From: Candidatus Latescibacterota bacterium | GTDB taxonomy: Bacteria > Latescibacterota > UBA2968 | Assembly: GCA_965204745.1 (NCBI GenBank) | Contig: OZ242010.1 | Location: 3,659,767-3,723,766, forward strand | Length of the DNA stretch: 64,000 nucleotides | Direction of reading: 5' to 3' | Shown: piece by piece, positions 10,991-56,517 of the stretch | Layout: each line of letters opens with the position of its first letter | How positions within the stretch are numbered: position 1 is the first letter of the stretch | Made by a program: the position numbers and the translations under genes | Notes under the pieces: generated by a model | Told to the model about the DNA's origin: nothing | The model's input: only the letters and a program-made list of their open reading frames with translations | The model's database searches: none

Positions 10991-11349
10991 TTTATCGGTC
11001 ACTCCGATCAACGGCCGAGCACGGGGGCATGGAAAAAAAAGGTGAGAGGTGAGAGGCAAGACGGGAGAAGACCTACACTCACTGCTCGCCTTTGGACTGG
11101 CTGTCGCTAGTTGTACCCCGCTCGTGGCTAAACTTGCCTCTTGCCTCTTGCCTCTTGCCTTTTTAGGCGAGCACGGGGCGTCGCCCCTACACATATCGCT
11201 CACCTTTGAACTGGCTATCGCCAGTTGTACCCCGCTCGTGCCTTTTGCGCCTTTTGTGGCTAATCGCCTTTTGTGGCTCACTTCAGGTTGGGTGGGCGGG
11301 TGTGGACTGACCACTGACTACTGACCACTGACTACTGCCTCTTCCCTTT

Positions 11350-14464
<3,115 letters not shown>

Positions 14465-14488
14465 GTCAGTAGTCAGTAGTCAGTAGTC

Positions 14489-14719
14489 AATGCGAATTAA
14501 GAGTAGAAAACGAGTAAGAAGCAAGCCGCGGCCAATCGCCCAAAGACCTCAACGAGTCATCCATTATAGAATCGCCCCTTAGAACTTGTCTGAAAACAAA
14601 CGATGCCCTCTCCTCCGGCTCCTCCCCGCAACGCAGAGACGTTATTCCCCCCTTCCTCGCAGGCACAGGCGTAGCCTACAACGAAGCGTAGCGAGTAACG
14701 GGGGTTAGGGGGGTAGGTC
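14489..14719. mobile_element. Truncated copy of MITE family B (TIR aatgcgaattaagag), next to a (CAGTAGT)x3 array
   Basis: Collinear with the reverse complement of 29781-30054 and with 18942-19269. Only the left TIR is present; the hairpin module A forms the right end. Confidence 0.5.
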
Positions 14720-18730: not shown

Positions 18731-18846
18731 ATGAAAGGCGTGAGACGTGAGACGTGAGACGTGAGATGAAAGGCGTGAGACGTGAGATGAAAGGCGTGAG
18801 ACGTGAGACGTGAGACGTGAAATGAAAGGCGTGAGACGTGAGATGA
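18731..18846. repeat. Tandem array of GTGAGAC heptamers interleaved with the 14-mer gtgagatgaaaggc
   Basis: gtgagacgtgagacgtgagacgtgagatgaaaggcgtgagacgtgagatgaaaggc... The minus-strand ORFs here (SRLTPFISRLT...) are translation artefacts of the repeat. Confidence 0.85.
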
Positions 18847-22204: not shown

Positions 22205-22530
22205 TATTTTTTTCGCACCTGTCAGGGCAACGATGGATCGGTCAACACACCCGTCAGGGCAACGATGGATCGGTCAACGCACCCGGCGGCGTGGGGATAG
22301 GTTGGAAACGCACAAGGCGGCGCAGAGGTAGGTTGGGCACGCACATGGCGGCGCGGTGGCGAGGTTGGGCACGTACAAGGCGGCGTGGTGGCAGGACAGG
22401 GAACGCACAAGGCGGCGTGGTGGCAGGACAGGGAACGCACAAGGCGGCGTGGCGGCGAGGCGGGGAACGCACAAGGCGGCGAGGCGGCAGGACAGGGAAC
22501 GCACAAGGCGGCGAGGCGGCGAGGCGGGGC
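22205..22530. repeat. ~32-bp minisatellite, ~10 degenerate tandem copies (gcacaaggcggcgtggtggcaggacagggaac)
   Basis: Units share the gcacaaggcggcg core and diverge gradually. The region is stop-free in all six frames. Repeats are contiguous with no spacers, so this is not CRISPR. Confidence 0.7.
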
Positions 22531-23147: not shown

Positions 23148-23360
23148 TTGATTACCGTCCATTTACCTTCTGAAATCGAGCAACGCATTGCGGACCTCGC
23201 CGCTCGAACTGGCCGTACCGAGACATTCTACATTGAGGAAGCCATCATGGAATACTTGGATGAACTGGAAGATAAATACTTGGCATTAAATCGCTTGGAG
23301 AATCCCACCAAACGCTGGACATTGGATGAAATGGAGCAAGGCATTGACAGTTGCGTTTGA
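23148..23360 (+). CDS. RelB/DinJ-family ribbon-helix-helix antitoxin-like protein
   Basis: TTG start with AAAGGAG RBS. N-terminal RHH (ITVHLPSEIEQRIADLAARTG) and a C-terminus RLENPTKRWTLDEME similar to RelB RLRNPKPVRVTLDEL. No RelE-like gene follows; instead it overlaps the methyltransferase gene by 35 bp. Confidence 0.6.
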   Translation: MITVHLPSEIEQRIADLAARTGRTETFYIEEAIMEYLDELEDKYLALNRLENPTKRWTLDEMEQGIDSCV

Positions 23361-24471
23361 CAACCGCGCTGTGCCGCCCACAGAGGGGATCAAGTATGCG
23401 GGGTCTAAGTTGAAGCTCCTTCCGCATATCTTGCAACTGGCCGCAAAGGTCGGGGCGAAGACGGTGTTGGATGGGTTCTCGGGGACGACAAGGGTGTCGC
23501 AGGCACTCGCCAGATCGGGGTATGCGGTCGTCTGCAACGATATTGCCGCGTGGTCTGAAATTTTTGGGATGTGCTATTTGCTCAATCAAAAGAAGCGGTC
23601 GGATTACCAACCGCTCATCGATCACCTCAATGCCGTGCGGCCCGTGGATGGATGGTTCACGCAACACTATGGCGGATATCCCAACGAGGGTTGCGCGATT
23701 CAGCGCGATGGGCGCAAGCGGCCATGGCAGATTCACAACACCCGAAAGCTGGATGCGATTCGGGAGGAGATCGAGGCCCTCGCGCTCGATCCCGTCGATA
23801 AGGCCGTGGCACTGACGAGCCTAATTTTGGCACTCGACCGCGTGGATAGTAGCCTCGGGCACTTTGTCTCGTATCTCAAAGACTGGTCCCCGCGCTCCTA
23901 CAAAAAACTCGAACTCAAAGTGCCATCTGTCTTTCCGTCCTCTGGGGAACATCGCGTGTTCCGAAAGGACATTTTTGACCTCGCGCCGCGCATCGACACG
24001 GACTTGGCGTATTTCGATCCGCCGTATGGATCGAACAATGAGAAAATGCCGCCATCGCGCGTGCGCTATGCGTCTTATTACCACGTCTGGACGAGCGTCA
24101 TTCTCTACGATAAACCCGCCCTTTTCGGCAGGGCCAATCGCCGCGTTGATACGTCTGACCCGGTGGCGGCATCCGCGTTTGAGGAGTTCAGACGCAACGC
24201 AAATGGTCGCTTCATCGCGGTCGAAGCCATTGAGAAACTCATCGCTACGACGCGAGCGCGCCATGTCATCTTGTCGTACAGTTCTGGAGGCAGGGCAACA
24301 GCCAAAGCGTTGAACGACGCGATGCAATGTCACGGCAGGCTTTTGGATGTGGTCGCGATCAATTATCAGAAAAACGTGATGGCGGGCATGACGTGGACGC
24401 ACGAATGGCTACGAGAGGTCGATCACCCAAACCGAGAGTTCTTGTTCTTGCTCGAAAAGCAACGTGCTTGA
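23326..24471 (+). CDS. Dam-like (D12 class, alpha-group) N6-adenine DNA methyltransferase, orphan
   Basis: IKYAGSK (SAM-binding region, cf. Dam FLKWAGGKY), FSGTT, and the DPPY catalytic motif (AYFDPPYG). Start either ATG 23326, overlapping relB, or GTG 23369. Confidence 0.8.
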   Translation: MKWSKALTVAFDNRAVPPTEGIKYAGSKLKLLPHILQLAAKVGAKTVLDGFSGTTRVSQALARSGYAVVCNDIAAWSEIFGMCYLLNQKKRSDYQPLIDHLNAVRPVDGWFTQHYGGYPNEGCAIQRDGRKRPWQIHNTRKLDAIREEIEALALDPVDKAVALTSLILALDRVDSSLGHFVSYLKDWSPRSYKKLELKVPSVFPSSGEHRVFRKDIFDLAPRIDTDLAYFDPPYGSNNEKMPPSRVRYASYYHVWTSVILYDKPALFGRANRRVDTSDPVAASAFEEFRRNANGRFIAVEAIEKLIATTRARHVILSYSSGGRATAKALNDAMQCHGRLLDVVAINYQKNVMAGMTWTHEWLREVDHPNREFLFLLEKQRA

Positions 24472-24521
24472 AGGAACGAAGTCAGTAAAAGCGCGAAAGG
24501 GAAAACCACCGATGGGCGTAC

Positions 24522-24677
24522 GAGGACAGGTACAGGGGCCTGTCCCCGCGCACCACCTGGCCCAACCCAACCGAATACGACGCCCGCGCCGCGCACTTGG
24601 CTCGGCTATTTAAGGAAAATTTCGCGCAATTTGAAACCGGCGTCTCGGATAAAATCCTCCGCGCAGGGCCTGTGTGA
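24522..24677 (+). pseudogene. pckA: 3' remnant (~50 codons) of ATP-dependent phosphoenolpyruvate carboxykinase
   Basis: YEDRYRGLSPRTTWPNPTEYDARAAHLARLFKENFAQFETGVSDKILRAGPV* matches the conserved PckA C-terminus (...PRNTW..P.EY...A..LA.LF..NF.K.....G..I..AGP). There is no upstream body; the methyltransferase stop lies 50 bp upstream. Confidence 0.55.
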
Positions 24678-24765
24678 TACCAAATATTGGAACACCTCAA
24701 CCCGTTTTCAGAGGGGAATTTCGGCATGGTTGCAAATGAAACAAAAGTCATCTTGAGAAAGAGAT

Positions 24766-25746
24766 ATGATTGAACGATACTCAAACGCCATTATTCAAGG
24801 CGATTGTTTAGAATTGCTAAAAACAATGCCCGATAACTCGGTAGATGTCGCGTTTGCGGACCCACCCTTTAACCTCAAAAAATCCTACAATAGCTACAAA
24901 GATCGCCGAAAACTCCGAGAATATTTGGACTGGTGCGAACTTTGGATAACCGAAATGGTTCGCATTGCCAAACCAACGGGCAGTATTTTTGTCCACAACA
25001 TACCGAAATGGCTCACATTTTATACGGCGTATCTGAATAAAATTGCCGATTTCAAGCACTGGATAAGTTGGGACGCGCCGACCGCACCAATGGGAAAAAC
25101 CCTGCAACCCTCGCATTATGGGATTTTATTTTACGCCAAAGACATCGAACAATTGAAATTTTATGAAATTCGTTATCCGCACAAACGCACGCGAAAAGAA
25201 GGGCTATTGGCAAAAGATTACGGCGGCAAAAAAAGACTCTTACACCCATTCGGCCCTCTCGTGTCCGATGTGTGGACGGATATTCACAGGGTCAAGCACA
25301 ATAAATACAGAGACAAACACCCCTGCCAGTTGCCCATACATTTATTGGAACGCATCATTTTAATGTCCTCAGATGAGGGCGATATCATTCTCGATCCCTT
25401 TAGTGGCACGGGCACAACGGCGTTGGCTGCCAAGCGTTTGGGCAGAAATTTCATCGGTTTTGAATTGGACGACAAATACGTTGAAATAACGCAAAATAAA
25501 CTTTTGCAAGAGAAGATGAGCTCGAAATTGGGTCGCTGTTGGGTCAGTTTTTATCTGGATAAATTGGTCACCTTAAGAGACGAAGATTGGAATGACATAA
25601 AAGAATTTTTCCACATTCCATCTCAAATTGAAAAGATAGATCTCATGCCGATTGTCTTAAAATCAAACGCGGCGAGTTCCATATCTTCCGAAAAAAATGG
25701 GAATAATCGCAAAGACGCGCTCCAAGAAGAACTCACATTGTCTTAG
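24766..25746 (+). CDS. Beta-class DNA methyltransferase (N4-cytosine or N6-adenine), low-GC, orphan
   Basis: DPPF catalytic motif (FADPPFN) precedes the FSGTGTT SAM motif, which is the beta-class order. Markedly AT-rich relative to the flanks. C-terminal ~70-aa extension of unknown function. Confidence 0.8.
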   Translation: MIERYSNAIIQGDCLELLKTMPDNSVDVAFADPPFNLKKSYNSYKDRRKLREYLDWCELWITEMVRIAKPTGSIFVHNIPKWLTFYTAYLNKIADFKHWISWDAPTAPMGKTLQPSHYGILFYAKDIEQLKFYEIRYPHKRTRKEGLLAKDYGGKKRLLHPFGPLVSDVWTDIHRVKHNKYRDKHPCQLPIHLLERIILMSSDEGDIILDPFSGTGTTALAAKRLGRNFIGFELDDKYVEITQNKLLQEKMSSKLGRCWVSFYLDKLVTLRDEDWNDIKEFFHIPSQIEKIDLMPIVLKSNAASSISSEKNGNNRKDALQEELTLS

Positions 25747-25793
25747 CGCGCGACTAGACGCCCCCCGCTGACCGCTTGGAGGCTTGGGATTAA

Positions 25794-25892
25794 CTGACAA
25801 CTGACAACTGACAACTGACAACTGACAACTGACAACTGACAACTGACAACTGACAACTGACAACTGACAACTGACAACTGACAACTGACAAC
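25794..25892. repeat. (CTGACAA)x14 perfect heptamer tandem array
   Basis: 99 bp of uninterrupted ctgacaa at the right edge of the methyltransferase islet, upstream of lgt. Confidence 0.95.
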
Positions 25893-25980
25893 TTGAGAGG
25901 AACAGCGCGGTGGCCTTCTCCCGTCTCCCCTCTTGCCTCTTGCCTCTCCCGTCTTCCCTCTACCCTCTTCCCTTCACCTC

Positions 25981-30134: not shown

Positions 30135-30173
30135 GACTGACTACTGACTACTGACTACTGACTACTGACTACT
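30135..30173. repeat. (CTGACTA)x5 heptamer array
   Basis: gggactgactactgactactgactactgactactgactacttgg. Confidence 0.9.
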
Positions 30174-30403
30174 TGGGGTGCTAGGCGGTCCTCTTGTATC
30201 TTTGGGCGAGCACGGGGGCATCGCCCCTACATATATATCGCTCACCTTTGAACTGGCTATCGCCAGTTGTACACCGCTCGTGCCTTCTGTGCCTTTTGTG
30301 GCTAAAATCCCGTCTTCCCTCTCCCGTCTCACTTGCGGAAGGGCGGCGCGGGGACTGACAACTGACAACTGACAACTGACAACTGACAACTGACAACTGA
30401 CAA

Positions 30404-31581
30404 CGGCGTTGTTGCATAAATGTTGTCGTGGCTAAGTTCGTCCCTTTCCCGCGAAATTTAAGCCCTTCTTTCTATGGGATAGGACACGGGTTTCGCGATC
30501 CTCATCATGCGATTGAGCACCGCACATCCCAACCGTGCTTCCGTTTCTTGGTTCTTCTTTTTTCGTGCGCGCAACTGCCGCCCAATGAGTTGTTTGTAGC
30601 GGCCTATGTGGGTTTCAACGACCGAGCGACGATGATAGCCACTGGTGCGTTTCCACTGTCGGCGGCCTTGACGCCGGATGGCTCGGATGATTTCATCGCG
30701 GGCGAGGGGGGGTGCCTTCCTGTTTCCGTGTTGTTCAATTTTGGCATCATGGCGCGGGGGAATCAGAGGTCGGATGGGGGCTCCTTGTTTGGGGGCGGCG
30801 CATGTGTTGAAGACCTTGCGTTTGTCATAGCCGCCATCGGCGCCCAGCGTATGGACAGGGGCCGGGACTTGATCGAGCAAGGGGTTGACCTGCGAAGCGT
30901 CATCAACGCTTGCCGAGGTCAGGGTCTGTGCGACAATCTCCCCGGTGGCCTCATCGACGCCGATGTGCAATTTGCGCCAAGTCCGGCGCTTGCAAAAGCC
31001 GTGTTGACGCACCTTCCATTCGCCTTCGCCATACACTTTCAGGCCGGTAGAATCCACCACCAAGTGGATCGGCTCGTGACGGGATTGGACAGGTAAATCC
31101 ACGTTCAAATCGCCCTGTCGCCGGCAGAGGGTCGTGTGATCGGGCACACGCAAATCCACCCCCATCAATGCCAGGATGGACTTGAGAAACCCCTCGGTTT
31201 GACGCAGGGGCAAGGCATAGACCAAGCGCACCATCAATGCCGTTTGAATAGCCAAATCTGAAAAGGTGTTTTGCCGCCCCCGTTGCGTTGGCCCTTGATG
31301 GTACCAGTTCCGAAGGGCTTGCGGCGTGATCCAAAACGTCAGACTGCCCCGCTGCTTGAGACCGGCCTCGTAGGCCGCCCAGTTCCTAACCCGATAGACA
31401 GGCGCACAGCGCGGGCGACGCGGGGACTTGACGGCGGGTTTGGAAGCGGTTATCTTGGGCATGACAGGTTCCTGGTGAGAAAGGGTGAGTTGTTTTGGTG
31501 ATCTATATGCCCAATCTACGAAGGAGCCTGTCTTTTTGCAATCCCAACTTGCAGGAAATTGCTATTTATGCAACAACGCCA
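30404..31581 (-). mobile_element. Complete IS5-family insertion sequence (~1.18 kb), inserted in a (CTGACAA)n array
   Basis: Perfect 17-bp terminal IRs ggcgttgttgcataaat (30404-30420) and atttatgcaacaacgcc (31565-31581). (CTGACAA)x7 on both flanks; removing the IS plus one AC restores the heptamer phase, consistent with a 2-bp duplication. Confidence 0.8.
30458..31462 (-). CDS. IS5-family DDE transposase
   Basis: 334 aa, MPKITASKPAVKSPRRPRCAPVYRVRNWAAYEAGLKQRG... typical IS5-family N-terminus. Confidence 0.85.
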   Translation of the reverse strand: MPKITASKPAVKSPRRPRCAPVYRVRNWAAYEAGLKQRGSLTFWITPQALRNWYHQGPTQRGRQNTFSDLAIQTALMVRLVYALPLRQTEGFLKSILALMGVDLRVPDHTTLCRRQGDLNVDLPVQSRHEPIHLVVDSTGLKVYGEGEWKVRQHGFCKRRTWRKLHIGVDEATGEIVAQTLTSASVDDASQVNPLLDQVPAPVHTLGADGGYDKRKVFNTCAAPKQGAPIRPLIPPRHDAKIEQHGNRKAPPLARDEIIRAIRRQGRRQWKRTSGYHRRSVVETHIGRYKQLIGRQLRARKKKNQETEARLGCAVLNRMMRIAKPVSYPIERRA

Positions 31582-31650
31582 CTGACAACTGACAACTGAC
31601 AACTGACAACTGACAACTGACAACTGACAACTGACCACTGGAGCCTCTCT

Positions 31651-36578: not shown

Positions 36579-36605
36579 TGCGCTTGCAAAAAAAGGATTT
36601 TGCCG

Positions 36606-38303
36606 ATGAATTTCACCGCCAACAACAACACGTTTCGCCAGTTGATGGGCAATGGCCTGAGTTATCGCGTGCCGCAATTTCAACGCGATTATTCCTGGGG
36701 CCCGGACGAATGGGACGATCTGTGGCAAGACATGGTCGGGCTGTTTGGCGAAGACCCGGAACCCGCGCATTACATGGGCTACTTGGTGTTGCAATCGTCC
36801 GACAACCGGGCGTTCGACATCATCGACGGACAGCAACGCATGACAACGCTGAGCTTGTTGATGCTGGCGGCAGTGGCGCATCTGAAAGACTTGGCAGTGC
36901 CGAATGACCCCAATGATCCGCAACACCGACGCGCAGAACAACTGCGAAACAATTACATCGGGTACCTCGATCCGGTGACGCTGGTGCCGCGCTCCAAGTT
37001 GACGCTGAACCGGCACAACGACCGCTTTTACCAGAATTACCTCGTGCCCCTTGAGCACCTGCCGCAAAGGGGGCTGAATGCTTCGGAACGCCTATTGCGA
37101 AGGGCGTTTCAGTGGTTTGGGGAACGCATCGTGGCATACGCGGGAAATGATGGCGAAGCGGTGGCGCGCTTTGTCGATAGCGCCGTTGATAAGTTGTTTT
37201 TTACGGTGATCACGGTGACGGACGAGTTGAATGCGTTCAAGGTCTTCGAGACCCTGAATGCGCGGGGCGTGCGCCTGTCTGCCACCGATTTGTTGAAAAA
37301 CTACCTGTTTTCCATGGTCTCGAGGGACGGCGTACACGAATCGGAAATCGAGGCATTAGAAGAACGCTGGGAGAGCATCGTCGGGCTGTTGGGCAGTGAG
37401 CGTTTTCCCGAGTTTTTGCGCGTCTATTGGAACAGCCACAATAGGTTGGTCCGCAAGGCCGATTTGTTCAAAACCATCCGCAATGCGATCCGCGACAAGT
37501 CCCAAGCCTTTGCCTTGATCCGCGCGATGGACCGGCATGCACGGGTGTACGCGGCATTGCGAAACCCAGAAGACGATTCGTGGACAGCCGCAGAGCGCGA
37601 CAGCCTATCCCAGTTGCTTATGTTCGACGTGCGCCAGCCCTTGGCCTTATTGCTGGCGGCCTTTGATCGATTCGCCGAAGACGACAGGGCCGGCCTCGGG
37701 CGTTTTCTTCGGGCTATTGCCGTGGTGTCTTTCCGCTACAACGCGATCTGCGGTTACCCGAGCAACGAGCAAGAGACGATGTACAACCGCATCGCACGCA
37801 ACATATCAACGGGCCAGATCGCCAATGCGACCGCCGCCATTGCGGAACTGAGGCCGGTTTATCCCGATGACGCAAAATTTAAGGCCGCGTTCGCCGACAA
37901 GGTGTTGCGAACCACCAGCAGTCGCGACAAAAAGGTGGCGCGCTTCATCCTGTTCCGACTCGAGGAGCAGTTGTCCGGCAATCGCTTTGATATTGAGAGC
38001 GCGAAATACAACATCGAGCATGTGTTGCCAGAAAGCCCCGGCAACGGCTGGGACCAATTCGACGATCAGCAACGCGATGCGTTCACCCATCGTTTGGGCA
38101 ACCTGACGCTTTTGGCAACAGCGGATAATCGCACCTTGGGAAATACCTCCTTTTTAGAAAAGCGTCCCATTTACCAAAAAAGCCAATTTGCCATCACGCG
38201 CAAATTGGCTGAAAATTTCGATGCCTGGACCGCAGAAAAAATTCGTTCACACCAGACCTGGATGGGCAAACAAGCCACGGCCATCTGGCGCGTCAATTTC
38301 TGA
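36606..38303 (+). CDS. GmrSD-family type IV (modification-dependent) restriction endonuclease, DUF262 + DUF1524
   Basis: N-terminal ParB/Srx-like DUF262 with IDGQQR. C-terminal His-Me finger (DUF1524: EHVLPES...W...HRLGNLTLL...NR.LGN). Confidence 0.75.
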   Translation: MNFTANNNTFRQLMGNGLSYRVPQFQRDYSWGPDEWDDLWQDMVGLFGEDPEPAHYMGYLVLQSSDNRAFDIIDGQQRMTTLSLLMLAAVAHLKDLAVPNDPNDPQHRRAEQLRNNYIGYLDPVTLVPRSKLTLNRHNDRFYQNYLVPLEHLPQRGLNASERLLRRAFQWFGERIVAYAGNDGEAVARFVDSAVDKLFFTVITVTDELNAFKVFETLNARGVRLSATDLLKNYLFSMVSRDGVHESEIEALEERWESIVGLLGSERFPEFLRVYWNSHNRLVRKADLFKTIRNAIRDKSQAFALIRAMDRHARVYAALRNPEDDSWTAAERDSLSQLLMFDVRQPLALLLAAFDRFAEDDRAGLGRFLRAIAVVSFRYNAICGYPSNEQETMYNRIARNISTGQIANATAAIAELRPVYPDDAKFKAAFADKVLRTTSSRDKKVARFILFRLEEQLSGNRFDIESAKYNIEHVLPESPGNGWDQFDDQQRDAFTHRLGNLTLLATADNRTLGNTSFLEKRPIYQKSQFAITRKLAENFDAWTAEKIRSHQTWMGKQATAIWRVNF

Positions 38304-56057: not shown

Positions 56058-56385
56058 AACCCTCCCTCGATGCGATGGGTTGACAAGAATAAGACGGGGG
56101 TTATATTGTGCTGTGCAAGCGCGGAGAGCGCATCTCTCTGGCGCGTGCGCGCGGATGATCGGCGATGGCCAGGCAAGTCAGAACCGATCATCCTTTTTTT
56201 GTCAGTTGGGCTTTATTGTTTTACTAATAAAACAACCGCCCAAAGAATAAAACAGATGTTAAAACTTGTCAACAATTTTTTGCAATCATCGCCGTTCATC
56301 CCTGCTTACCACGCAGAGACATGCCTGTGGTTGCTTTTTTCGCTTTTCAAAACGCTTGAATTTTCAGCCTAAGCGCGTATTTTAG

Positions 56386-56504
56386 CAAGAGGCAAGAGGC
56401 AAGAGGCAAGAGGCAAGAGGCAAGAGGCAAGAGGCAAGAGGCAAGAGGCAAGAGGCAAGAGGCAAGAGGCAAGAGGCAAGAGGCAAGAGGCAAGAGGCAA
56501 GAGG
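56386..56504. repeat. (CAAGAGG)x17 heptamer array abutting the RBS of the downstream oxidoreductase gene
   Basis: The array ends ...caagaggCAAGGAGatcgacATG; the last unit grades into the AAGGAG Shine-Dalgarno of the 56518 gene. Confidence 0.95.
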
Positions 56505-56517
56505 CAAGGAGATCGAC

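Follow-up and report, generated by a model that had tools for sequence, protein, structure and literature searches.

How does the gene of a DNA methyltransferase come to overlap that of a RelB-type antitoxin, in the position of the toxin gene, with a second methyltransferase gene close behind and no restriction endonuclease gene beside either? The locus that raises this question lies in a 64,000-nucleotide stretch of DNA from a Candidatus Latescibacterota bacterium (assembly GCA_965204745.1, contig OZ242010.1, positions 3,659,767 to 3,723,766 of the forward strand), the whole of which was analysed and is called the window below; coordinates refer to it unless another locus is named. We designate the three genes relB, M1 and M2. 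An earlier reading of the letters alone, the original prediction, proposed either that the ribbon-helix-helix (RHH) protein encoded by relB controls the methyltransferase, or that a methyltransferase cassette has displaced the toxin gene relE. Our comparisons point with good confidence to a different history, in which the locus is what remains of three poison–antidote modules, with every poison gene deleted and every antidote kept. The survivors, a RelB antitoxin and two DNA methyltransferases, would probably descend from one toxin-antitoxin pair and two restriction-modification (R-M) systems. The parts of this account that are directly supported are homology, synteny, the deletion junctions, and purifying selection on M1 and RelB; adenine methylation by M1 and M2 and DNA binding by RelB are presumably still ongoing.

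The window was compared with L-numbered loci on other contigs and genomes, of which L004–L083 are genome loci, L087 is a Methylophaga contig, and L088 and L089 belong to the same species as the window (96.6% and 98.9% DNA identity to it, respectively).

The features described in the original prediction are all present, with small corrections. The predicted RelB-type RHH gene of 70 codons is present, and its product scores 78.4 bits with the NCBIfam model 'RelB family antitoxin' (cutoff 50) and 22 bits with the Pfam RHH model (cutoff 20.5). The M1 open reading frame (orf) extends from 23326 to 24471 (381 aa), with possible starts at ATG 23326 or TTG 23344; as predicted, its product is a D12-class methyltransferase with FSGTT and DPPY motifs (Pfam MethyltransfD12, E = 1e-20), and it matches the PADLOC profile MTase_II PDLC03342 (E = 6e-159) in an alignment that begins only at profile position 19. 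M2 is the low-GC, beta-class enzyme that had been described (326 aa; Pfam N6_N4_Mtase, E = 1e-49; 43% GC vs 57% for the window). The 35-bp overlap of relB and M1 is correct if measured from ATG 23326, but is 17 bp from TTG 23344, which is the conserved toxin start, as in L087. The statement that the region has no restriction endonuclease also stands, as tblastn with the cognate endonucleases of both methyltransferase families recovered nothing significant anywhere in the window; from the comparisons below, the missing endonucleases appear to reflect gene loss rather than systems that were originally without one.

Homologues of the RelB protein are 63–99% identical and nearly all are 62–75 aa long. 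In L087 an 88-aa Pfam ParE_toxin gene overlaps the end of the relB homologue by 17 bp, and in L086 a full toxin orf lies in the same position, opening with TTG ('LTWRVEFDDRAAKELRKL...'; ParE_toxin E = 1.7e-15); these pairings identify a genuine RelB/ParD-type antitoxin family. No intact cognate toxin gene lies next to relB in the window, and tblastn with the 88-aa toxin detects nothing in the window beyond a stub of 9 codons. The start of that stub is nonetheless native: the GGAG ribosome-binding site of relE at 23333-23336 and the TTG at 23344 are both preserved, and in L009 the equivalent start opens a full 88-aa ParE_toxin orf (Pfam E = 1.9e-15). The RelE-like frame with a non-ATG start at 23330-23420, which the original prediction had named as a finding that would refute it, is thus present, but as a 9-codon stub fused in frame to M1 and not as a toxin gene.

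The contigs that carry close M1 homologues are syntenic with the window, with cytochrome c, PCuAC and sco1 genes on the left and lgt and cysS on the right, and the interval between sco1 and lgt differs among them by what has been lost. L003 has sco1, relB, a 12-codon relE stub, an endonuclease gene (R), M1 and lgt, in that order. L009 has relB, a complete ParE-family toxin gene, 24 bp, M1 and lgt, with no endonuclease; it is the only one of seven relB-bearing arrangements in the clade to have kept the toxin. In L001, relB is followed by about 17 codons of relE, about the last 10 codons of R, and then M1, and in L002 R is reduced to its last 46 codons. In L084 and L085, relB abuts M1 with a 4-bp overlap, and in L005, L006, L007, L010 and L012 relB is absent, leaving sco1, M1 and lgt. 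The synteny of sco1 with M1 and lgt holds in at least 12 related loci. The segment of L003 between the relE stub and R (L003 5080-5115) duplicates about 36 bp of the 3' coding part of sco1 (L003 4688-4723), encoding AAGYLIDHSLYI; a similar motif within R, ATTGACTACTCGC, appears to have mediated the deletion in L002, and points to extra recombination steps.

In the window's species the deletion can be read at the level of single bases. CGCCGCG occurs, in one and the same codon phase (Ala-Ala), in the relE stub of L003 (...TTGACATGGACCGTTGCGTTTGACGACCGCGCCGCGGGG...) and again in codons 11–21 of its M1 gene (...GTTCTCGCCGCGCCGCCCACAGAGGGGATCAAG...), and the corresponding sequence of the window is TTGACA------GTTGCGTTTGACAACCGCGCTGTGCCGCCCACAGAGGGGATCAAG. 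The window junction reads as the recombination product of the two CGCCGCG repeats, altered afterwards by two transitions. The junction region also has a 6-bp in-frame deletion, which accounts for a RelB of 70 residues in the window vs 72 in L001 and L003. All three assemblies of the species (the window, L088 and L089) have the identical junction.

We therefore propose the following series of events. The ancestor would have carried, between sco1 and lgt, a relBE pair of the ParE family followed by a compact two-gene type II R-M cassette, in which R lies upstream of the methyltransferase gene and overlaps it, and separate descendants would have shed different poison genes. In the window's species, a single recombination between the two in-phase 7-bp repeats would have removed about 1 kb, from relE codons 10–12 to M1 codons 13–15: the rest of the relE remnant, the entire endonuclease gene, and the first ~14 non-conserved codons of M1. 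The product would be relB followed by an in-frame relE–M1 fusion, with M1 translated from the relE ribosome-binding site and TTG start, and coupled to relB through the original 17-bp overlap. M2 would have come later, in a second R-M cassette from a low-GC donor, whose upstream endonuclease was also lost. Retention of the antidotes presumably follows from an asymmetry, in that a poison can be lost safely while its antidote stays and an antidote cannot be lost while its poison stays; alternatively, the antidotes may shield against re-invasion by the same selfish modules, or may have acquired epigenetic roles. The displacement of relE suggested in the original prediction is thus right in its outcome but not in its route, since relBE and a complete R-M system were once adjacent (as L009 and L003 attest) and deletion removed relE and R together.

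That M1 and R form a cassette is evident from its distribution. The R protein of L003 (282 aa) matches PADLOC REase_II PDLC03568 over its full length (E = 1e-132), and its gene overlaps M1 by 4 bp; it belongs to no Pfam or NCBIfam family and is recognised by PADLOC only. Among 80 genomes with M1 homologues, R is intact directly upstream in 22, present as fragments or frameshifted in 7, and not found in the rest (~50). A metagenomic set of 80 loci was found with R as the query, and in every one of the 73 with enough sequence downstream M1 follows; none has relB, relE, sco1 or lgt nearby, and R–M1 is therefore a minimal mobile two-gene cassette, to which the RHH gene appears to be a lineage-specific neighbour and not a component. 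In none of its hosts does R have a conserved leader or a C gene ahead of it, and R has no annotated relative among plasmids. The GC content of R is usually below that of its methyltransferase partner (43% vs 56% in L003, 39% vs 52% in L027). Palindrome avoidance was used to look for the recognition site of M1: the hexamer CAGCTG is depleted in R-carrying loci (11 times vs 41 expected) but not in R-less loci (73 times vs 83 expected); as it is present in some R-carrying loci and the two sets differ taxonomically, no site is assigned.

The M1 family is large, with more than 6,700 matches, of which the best-scoring 120 are 71–98% identical, and genome matches fall in many phyla. Members 68–83% identical occur in metagenome-assembled genomes labelled Poribacteria, Latescibacterota, Dehalococcoidia, Nitrospirales, Binatia, Planctomycetota and others, most of them labelled Poribacteria or Latescibacterota; several of these groups, these two among them, are sponge-associated. 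In 31 R-less loci, nearly all labelled Poribacteria, the M1 homologue has common flanking genes and is a syntenic orphan there too. The exact M1 protein of the window has no record in the public contig index; the near-identical assemblies were recovered with the RHH protein as query. The best phage match is 33% identical, and the relation to the FokI, LlaI and HpyI methylases is only distant, so that neither a name nor a specificity is gained; neither M1 nor the L003 endonuclease has a meaningful sequence match to any solved structure.

M1 and RelB look functional by the pattern of their divergence. The ratio of nonsynonymous to synonymous divergence (dN/dS, pairwise Nei-Gojobori) is 0.06–0.17 for M1, with medians of 0.10 for sco1 and 0.11 for lgt (lgt values involving L003 were left out, as they derive from a gapped tblastn segment). 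In close pairs the three genes have similar dS (window vs L001: 0.33 for M1, 0.30 for sco1 and 0.23 for lgt); in distant pairs that of M1 is higher, ~1.6 vs ~0.9. Taken with the conserved synteny, these values fit a methyltransferase that has long been inherited vertically without R and under purifying selection. For RelB, dN/dS is 0.04–0.2, except for the little-diverged pair of the window and L003 (0.53). L002 and L003 have one common relE-deletion junction, so the RelB divergence between them arose without the toxin; the proportions of nonsynonymous and synonymous sites that differ are 0.061 and 0.25 (Fisher p = 0.002), with the signal in the N-terminal DNA-binding domain. RelB is thus under purifying selection in toxin-less lineages.

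The second methyltransferase is recently acquired. Its family is highly conserved and widespread, for example in Bacteroidota, and M2 is related by sequence to solved structures such as M.MboIIA and CcrM. Directly upstream of the nearest relatives outside the species (76–77% identical), and overlapping them by 1–4 bp, is a gene of about 322 codons with weak DpnII and BanI endonuclease signatures; within one population this gene is intact in L091 and L093, split in L094, and deleted in L090 and L092. L099, a locus of host-like GC, has an M2 that is 92% identical and an endonuclease frameshifted into two pieces, and its DNA similarity to the window is limited to 24754-25747, that is, M2 and its ribosome-binding site. 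A remnant of the M2 endonuclease was sought in the leader at 24678-24765; the one 16-residue match, near the expected position, is not significant (E = 5.9 against the whole window).

The insertion that contains M2 has a definable left edge. The spacer between M1 and M2, described in the original prediction as 290 bp, is 294 bp (24472-24765) and is not empty, as it contains a repetitive extragenic palindrome (REP)-like element and a 3' fragment of pckA. Colinearity with L001 stops at the palindrome, and relative to L001 about 1.4 kb (24547-25923), comprising the pckA fragment, M2 and a heptamer array, is inserted between M1 and lgt. The pckA fragment matches NCBIfam PEPCK models (E = 1e-8, positions 483–526 of 529) and is missing from the syntenic spacers of relatives, which suggests that the M2 segment came from, or travelled by way of, a position downstream of a pckA gene. 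The REP-like palindrome recurs in intergenic spacers of the lineage in a conserved GAGGACAGGCACGGGGGCCTGTCCCTAC context.

Several points weigh against the history proposed here. The activity of M1, M2 and RelB is deduced from sequence conservation only. The order relB-relE-R-M is pieced together from different genomes, and none of those examined has all four genes intact. The 36-bp duplicate of sco1 between the relE stub and R of L003 implies that the locus has had more steps than the proposed scheme. The GC difference between R (43%) and M1 (56%) in L003 means that R could have been re-acquired there, but this is countered by the tails of R in L001 and L002, which argue that R is ancestral to that subclade. 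The window junction is two transitions away from the predicted CGCCGCG, and constraint on the toxin-binding tail of RelB is not demonstrated (p = 0.3, with low power).

Three other explanations were weighed, and the one that survives best is that RelB has taken on the role of a transcriptional controller dedicated to the methyltransferase, an RHH analogue of the C proteins, with the tight coupling of relB and M1 as the selected state. It is the only one with some positive evidence, namely the constraint on the RelB DNA-binding domain after loss of the toxin, and two deletions of independent origin, one of the window type and one of the L084 type, that placed M1 right behind relB with overlapping stop and start signals; in addition, the relE stub of L003 ends 5 nt past the R start codon, and coupled translation of the whole array is possible. 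We nevertheless think it improbable, since no RHH gene accompanies any of the 22 intact genome cassettes or the 73 metagenome cassettes of this R-M family, five sister genomes keep M1 without relB, and in L001 and L002 relB and M1 are separated by 67–172 bp of debris and M1 has its own start. The pairing of the RelB family with ParE/RelE toxins also speaks against this first proposal of the original prediction, as does the upstream sequence. In the canonical pairs of L086 and L087 the antitoxin gene is preceded by AT-rich palindromic stretches, whereas no palindromic operator lies upstream of relB in the window: scans of the 35 bp between the sco1 stop codon and relB found nothing above chance, neither an inverted repeat nor a plus-strand site resembling a promoter or terminator, and the sco1 3' end likewise has no sigma-70-like promoter or inverted repeat, although sigma-70 rules may not be those of this phylum. 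Because only these 35 bp, with no recognisable promoter or terminator, precede relB, the simplest reading is that relB and M1 are probably transcribed together with the upstream cytochrome c, PCuAC and sco1 genes. A related idea, to which we give similarly little weight, is that the deletion made an orphan adenine methyltransferase part of an antitoxin operon, so that M1 is expressed from the toxin's start signals in step with a functional RelB repressor, forming an RHH-governed and possibly stress-responsive epigenetic module; if this were true, the same design would have arisen a second time, independently, in L084.

Less probable still is that all three genes are non-functional debris yet to decay. 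In its favour, no poison partner is left, the leader that M1 took from relE differs between members of the species (2 changes in 15 codons in P0001), and M2 is so recent that selection on it is not assessable; but M1 is intact and has lost none of the columns, FSGTT and DPPY among them, in which 23 homologues are invariant (the ~14 lost codons are variable in the family), its low dN/dS persists beyond dS > 1 in a clade almost wholly without R, RelB is constrained in toxin-less lineages, and M1 is a syntenic orphan in the 31 Poribacteria-type genomes as well. That relB and M1 form a new toxin-antitoxin-like pair, in which a harmful methyltransferase is neutralised by RelB, is very improbable, as the gene arrangement that suggests it (a methyltransferase in the toxin's position, with the toxin's start signals) is accounted for by deletion, the 9 toxin codons left are too few for a RelB-binding surface, and M1 occurs without relB in many genomes.

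Table 1. Coordinates of the features of the locus and its surroundings in the window
Feature	Position	Strand	Description
relB	23148..23360	+	RHH antitoxin, 70 aa, TTG start, AAGGAG ribosome-binding site; toxin partner lost; NF048017, Pfam RHH_1
relE/parE stub	23344..23370	+	Native TTG start and 8 codons (LTVAFDNRA), fused in frame to M1; DNA colinear with L003, L001 and L009
Deletion junction (CGCTGTG)	23367..23373	+	Putatively from the 7-bp direct repeat CGCCGCG in relE codons 10–12 and M1 codons 13–15 of an L003-like allele
M1	23371..24471	+	D12-class (alpha) N6-adenine DNA methyltransferase, solitary; modification half of a two-gene type II R-M cassette; PF02086
REP-like palindrome	24524..24545		GGACAGG-N8-CCTGTCC; also in the M1–lgt spacers of L001 and L003 and the spacer upstream of relB in L002
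pckA fragment	24540..24677	+	3' end (~45 codons, with stop) of a phosphoenolpyruvate carboxykinase gene; 61% GC, host-like
M2 leader	24678..24765	+	AT-rich (40% GC), 88 bp; position of the cognate endonuclease gene in relatives
M2	24766..25746	+	Beta-class N6_N4 DNA methyltransferase (DPPF ... FSGTGTT), solitary; Pfam PF01555
Heptamer array	25792..25893		(CTGACAA)x14.6, perfect; in the spacer upstream of lgt; genome-wide intergenic repeat type
GmrSD-family gene	36600..38303	+	Type IV-like nuclease (DUF262/DUF1524); neighbour, not part of the relic; Pfam, PADLOC

The heptamer array upstream of lgt, taken in the original prediction for a (CTGACAA)x14 right border, is indeed perfect and has 14.6 copies, but it is not a border. 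Heptamer arrays with at least three copies are found at 14 places across the window. In L003 and L001, neither of which has M2, such an array again precedes lgt, which shows that the array is a genome-wide intergenic feature and not the edge of a cassette. Perfect intergenic arrays lie at 2697-2742, 11133-11160, 14465-14489, 18739-18843, 30136-30404, 31581-31640 and 56385-56508, among others, with units of the ACTGACA type, CTTGCCT, CGTGAGA and GCAAGAG (x17.7), and both unit and copy number vary between close relatives. A different repeat, of about eight tandem 32-bp copies at 22216-22529, falls within the 5' part of the long 'sco1' orf, and its period is not a multiple of 3; Sco1 is 216–261 aa in relatives vs 313 aa in the window, and the true sco1 start is probably downstream of these repeats. 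Scans for tRNA genes and Rfam families near the locus found nothing, hence no tRNA-type integration site.

The GmrSD gene is, as had been noted, 11 kb away, and its product combines GmrSD_N (DUF262) and GmrSD_C (DUF1524) in one polypeptide (E = 1.8e-35 and 2.7e-31) and matches the PADLOC candidate defence family HEC-06 (E = 4e-227). It lies downstream of genes for an ABC-type binding protein and an oxidoreductase, with no obvious defence island. Enzymes of the GmrSD family attack DNA with modified cytosine. The placement of two methyltransferases near it had been thought odd, but M1 and M2 have the DPPY and DPPF motifs of N6-adenine enzymes and GmrSD would target modified cytosine, so their co-residence seems to need no special explanation.

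The composition of the window also shows avoided palindromes. CGATCG is not found in positions 1-64000 (~38 expected), while CGATCC, CGATCT and CGATCA occur 38–42 times each; GTGCAC is likewise absent (9.5 expected), and GGGCCC occurs 3 times vs 19 expected. CGATCG is absent also from L003 and L088, and occurs four times in each of L001 and L002. The pattern suggests restriction pressure of the PvuI type, particular to this sublineage and unrelated to M1.

The locus makes the asymmetric decay of selfish poison–antidote modules visible base by base across sister genomes: the endonuclease is never found without its methyltransferase in the sample (73 of 73 loci), and the methyltransferase often outlives the endonuclease (~50 of 80 genomes). 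It also carries a warning for annotation, in that a methyltransferase in the position of a toxin need not be the sign of a novel design, whether regulatory or toxin-antitoxin. The M1 family, as a syntenic orphan in at least two groups, is a candidate for a shared methylation mark or for immunity against a circulating R-M element.

Each component of the locus resembles a known system and departs from it. As in relBE and parDE pairs, the window has an RHH protein of the RelB family, the 17-bp overlap of antitoxin stop and toxin start, and relatives with a ParE_toxin partner; unlike them, its toxin is reduced to 9 codons that now form the leader of another gene, and the lineage has no recognisable operator or promoter upstream of relB. 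Orphan antitoxins are abundant and have been proposed to act as anti-addiction modules (PMC7192599), and R-M systems act in much the same way as toxin-antitoxin systems (PMC3874152). C proteins are known controllers of R-M systems (PMC12707154; also PMC3874152), and the arrangement in L003, with the gene of a small DNA-binding protein upstream of the R-M genes, is like that of C.PvuII and C.BamHI. C proteins, however, are helix-turn-helix proteins that travel with the R-M cassette and act on C-boxes, whereas the protein of the window is an RHH protein of a toxin-antitoxin family, its gene is not carried along with the cassette, and the scan of the upstream sequence showed no repeated box. The orphans Dam and CcrM are matched in class by M1 (D12, as Dam) and M2 (beta, as CcrM and MboIIA); both genes are without an endonuclease, and M1 is vertically conserved in its clade, although, unlike Dam and CcrM, it has no match among solved structures.

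The closest likeness is to orphan methyltransferases derived from R-M systems. These are degradation products of such systems that are conserved like average genes (Seshasayee et al. 2012, PMC3424554), and a survey of Halobacteria likewise traces orphan methyltransferases to the degradation of type II R-M systems (PMC6471742). The locus shares with them a methyltransferase kept at a fixed site, the loss of its endonuclease, fragment intermediates in relatives, and conservation equal to that of housekeeping neighbours. It differs in that the methyltransferase is fused to the start of a toxin gene and two unrelated orphans stand side by side. The route of decay is thus already known and the kind of system is not new, but its documentation here is unusually complete: the whole decay series, with base-level junctions, is readable across sister genomes, and includes a methyltransferase that has captured the initiation region of a toxin gene in frame.

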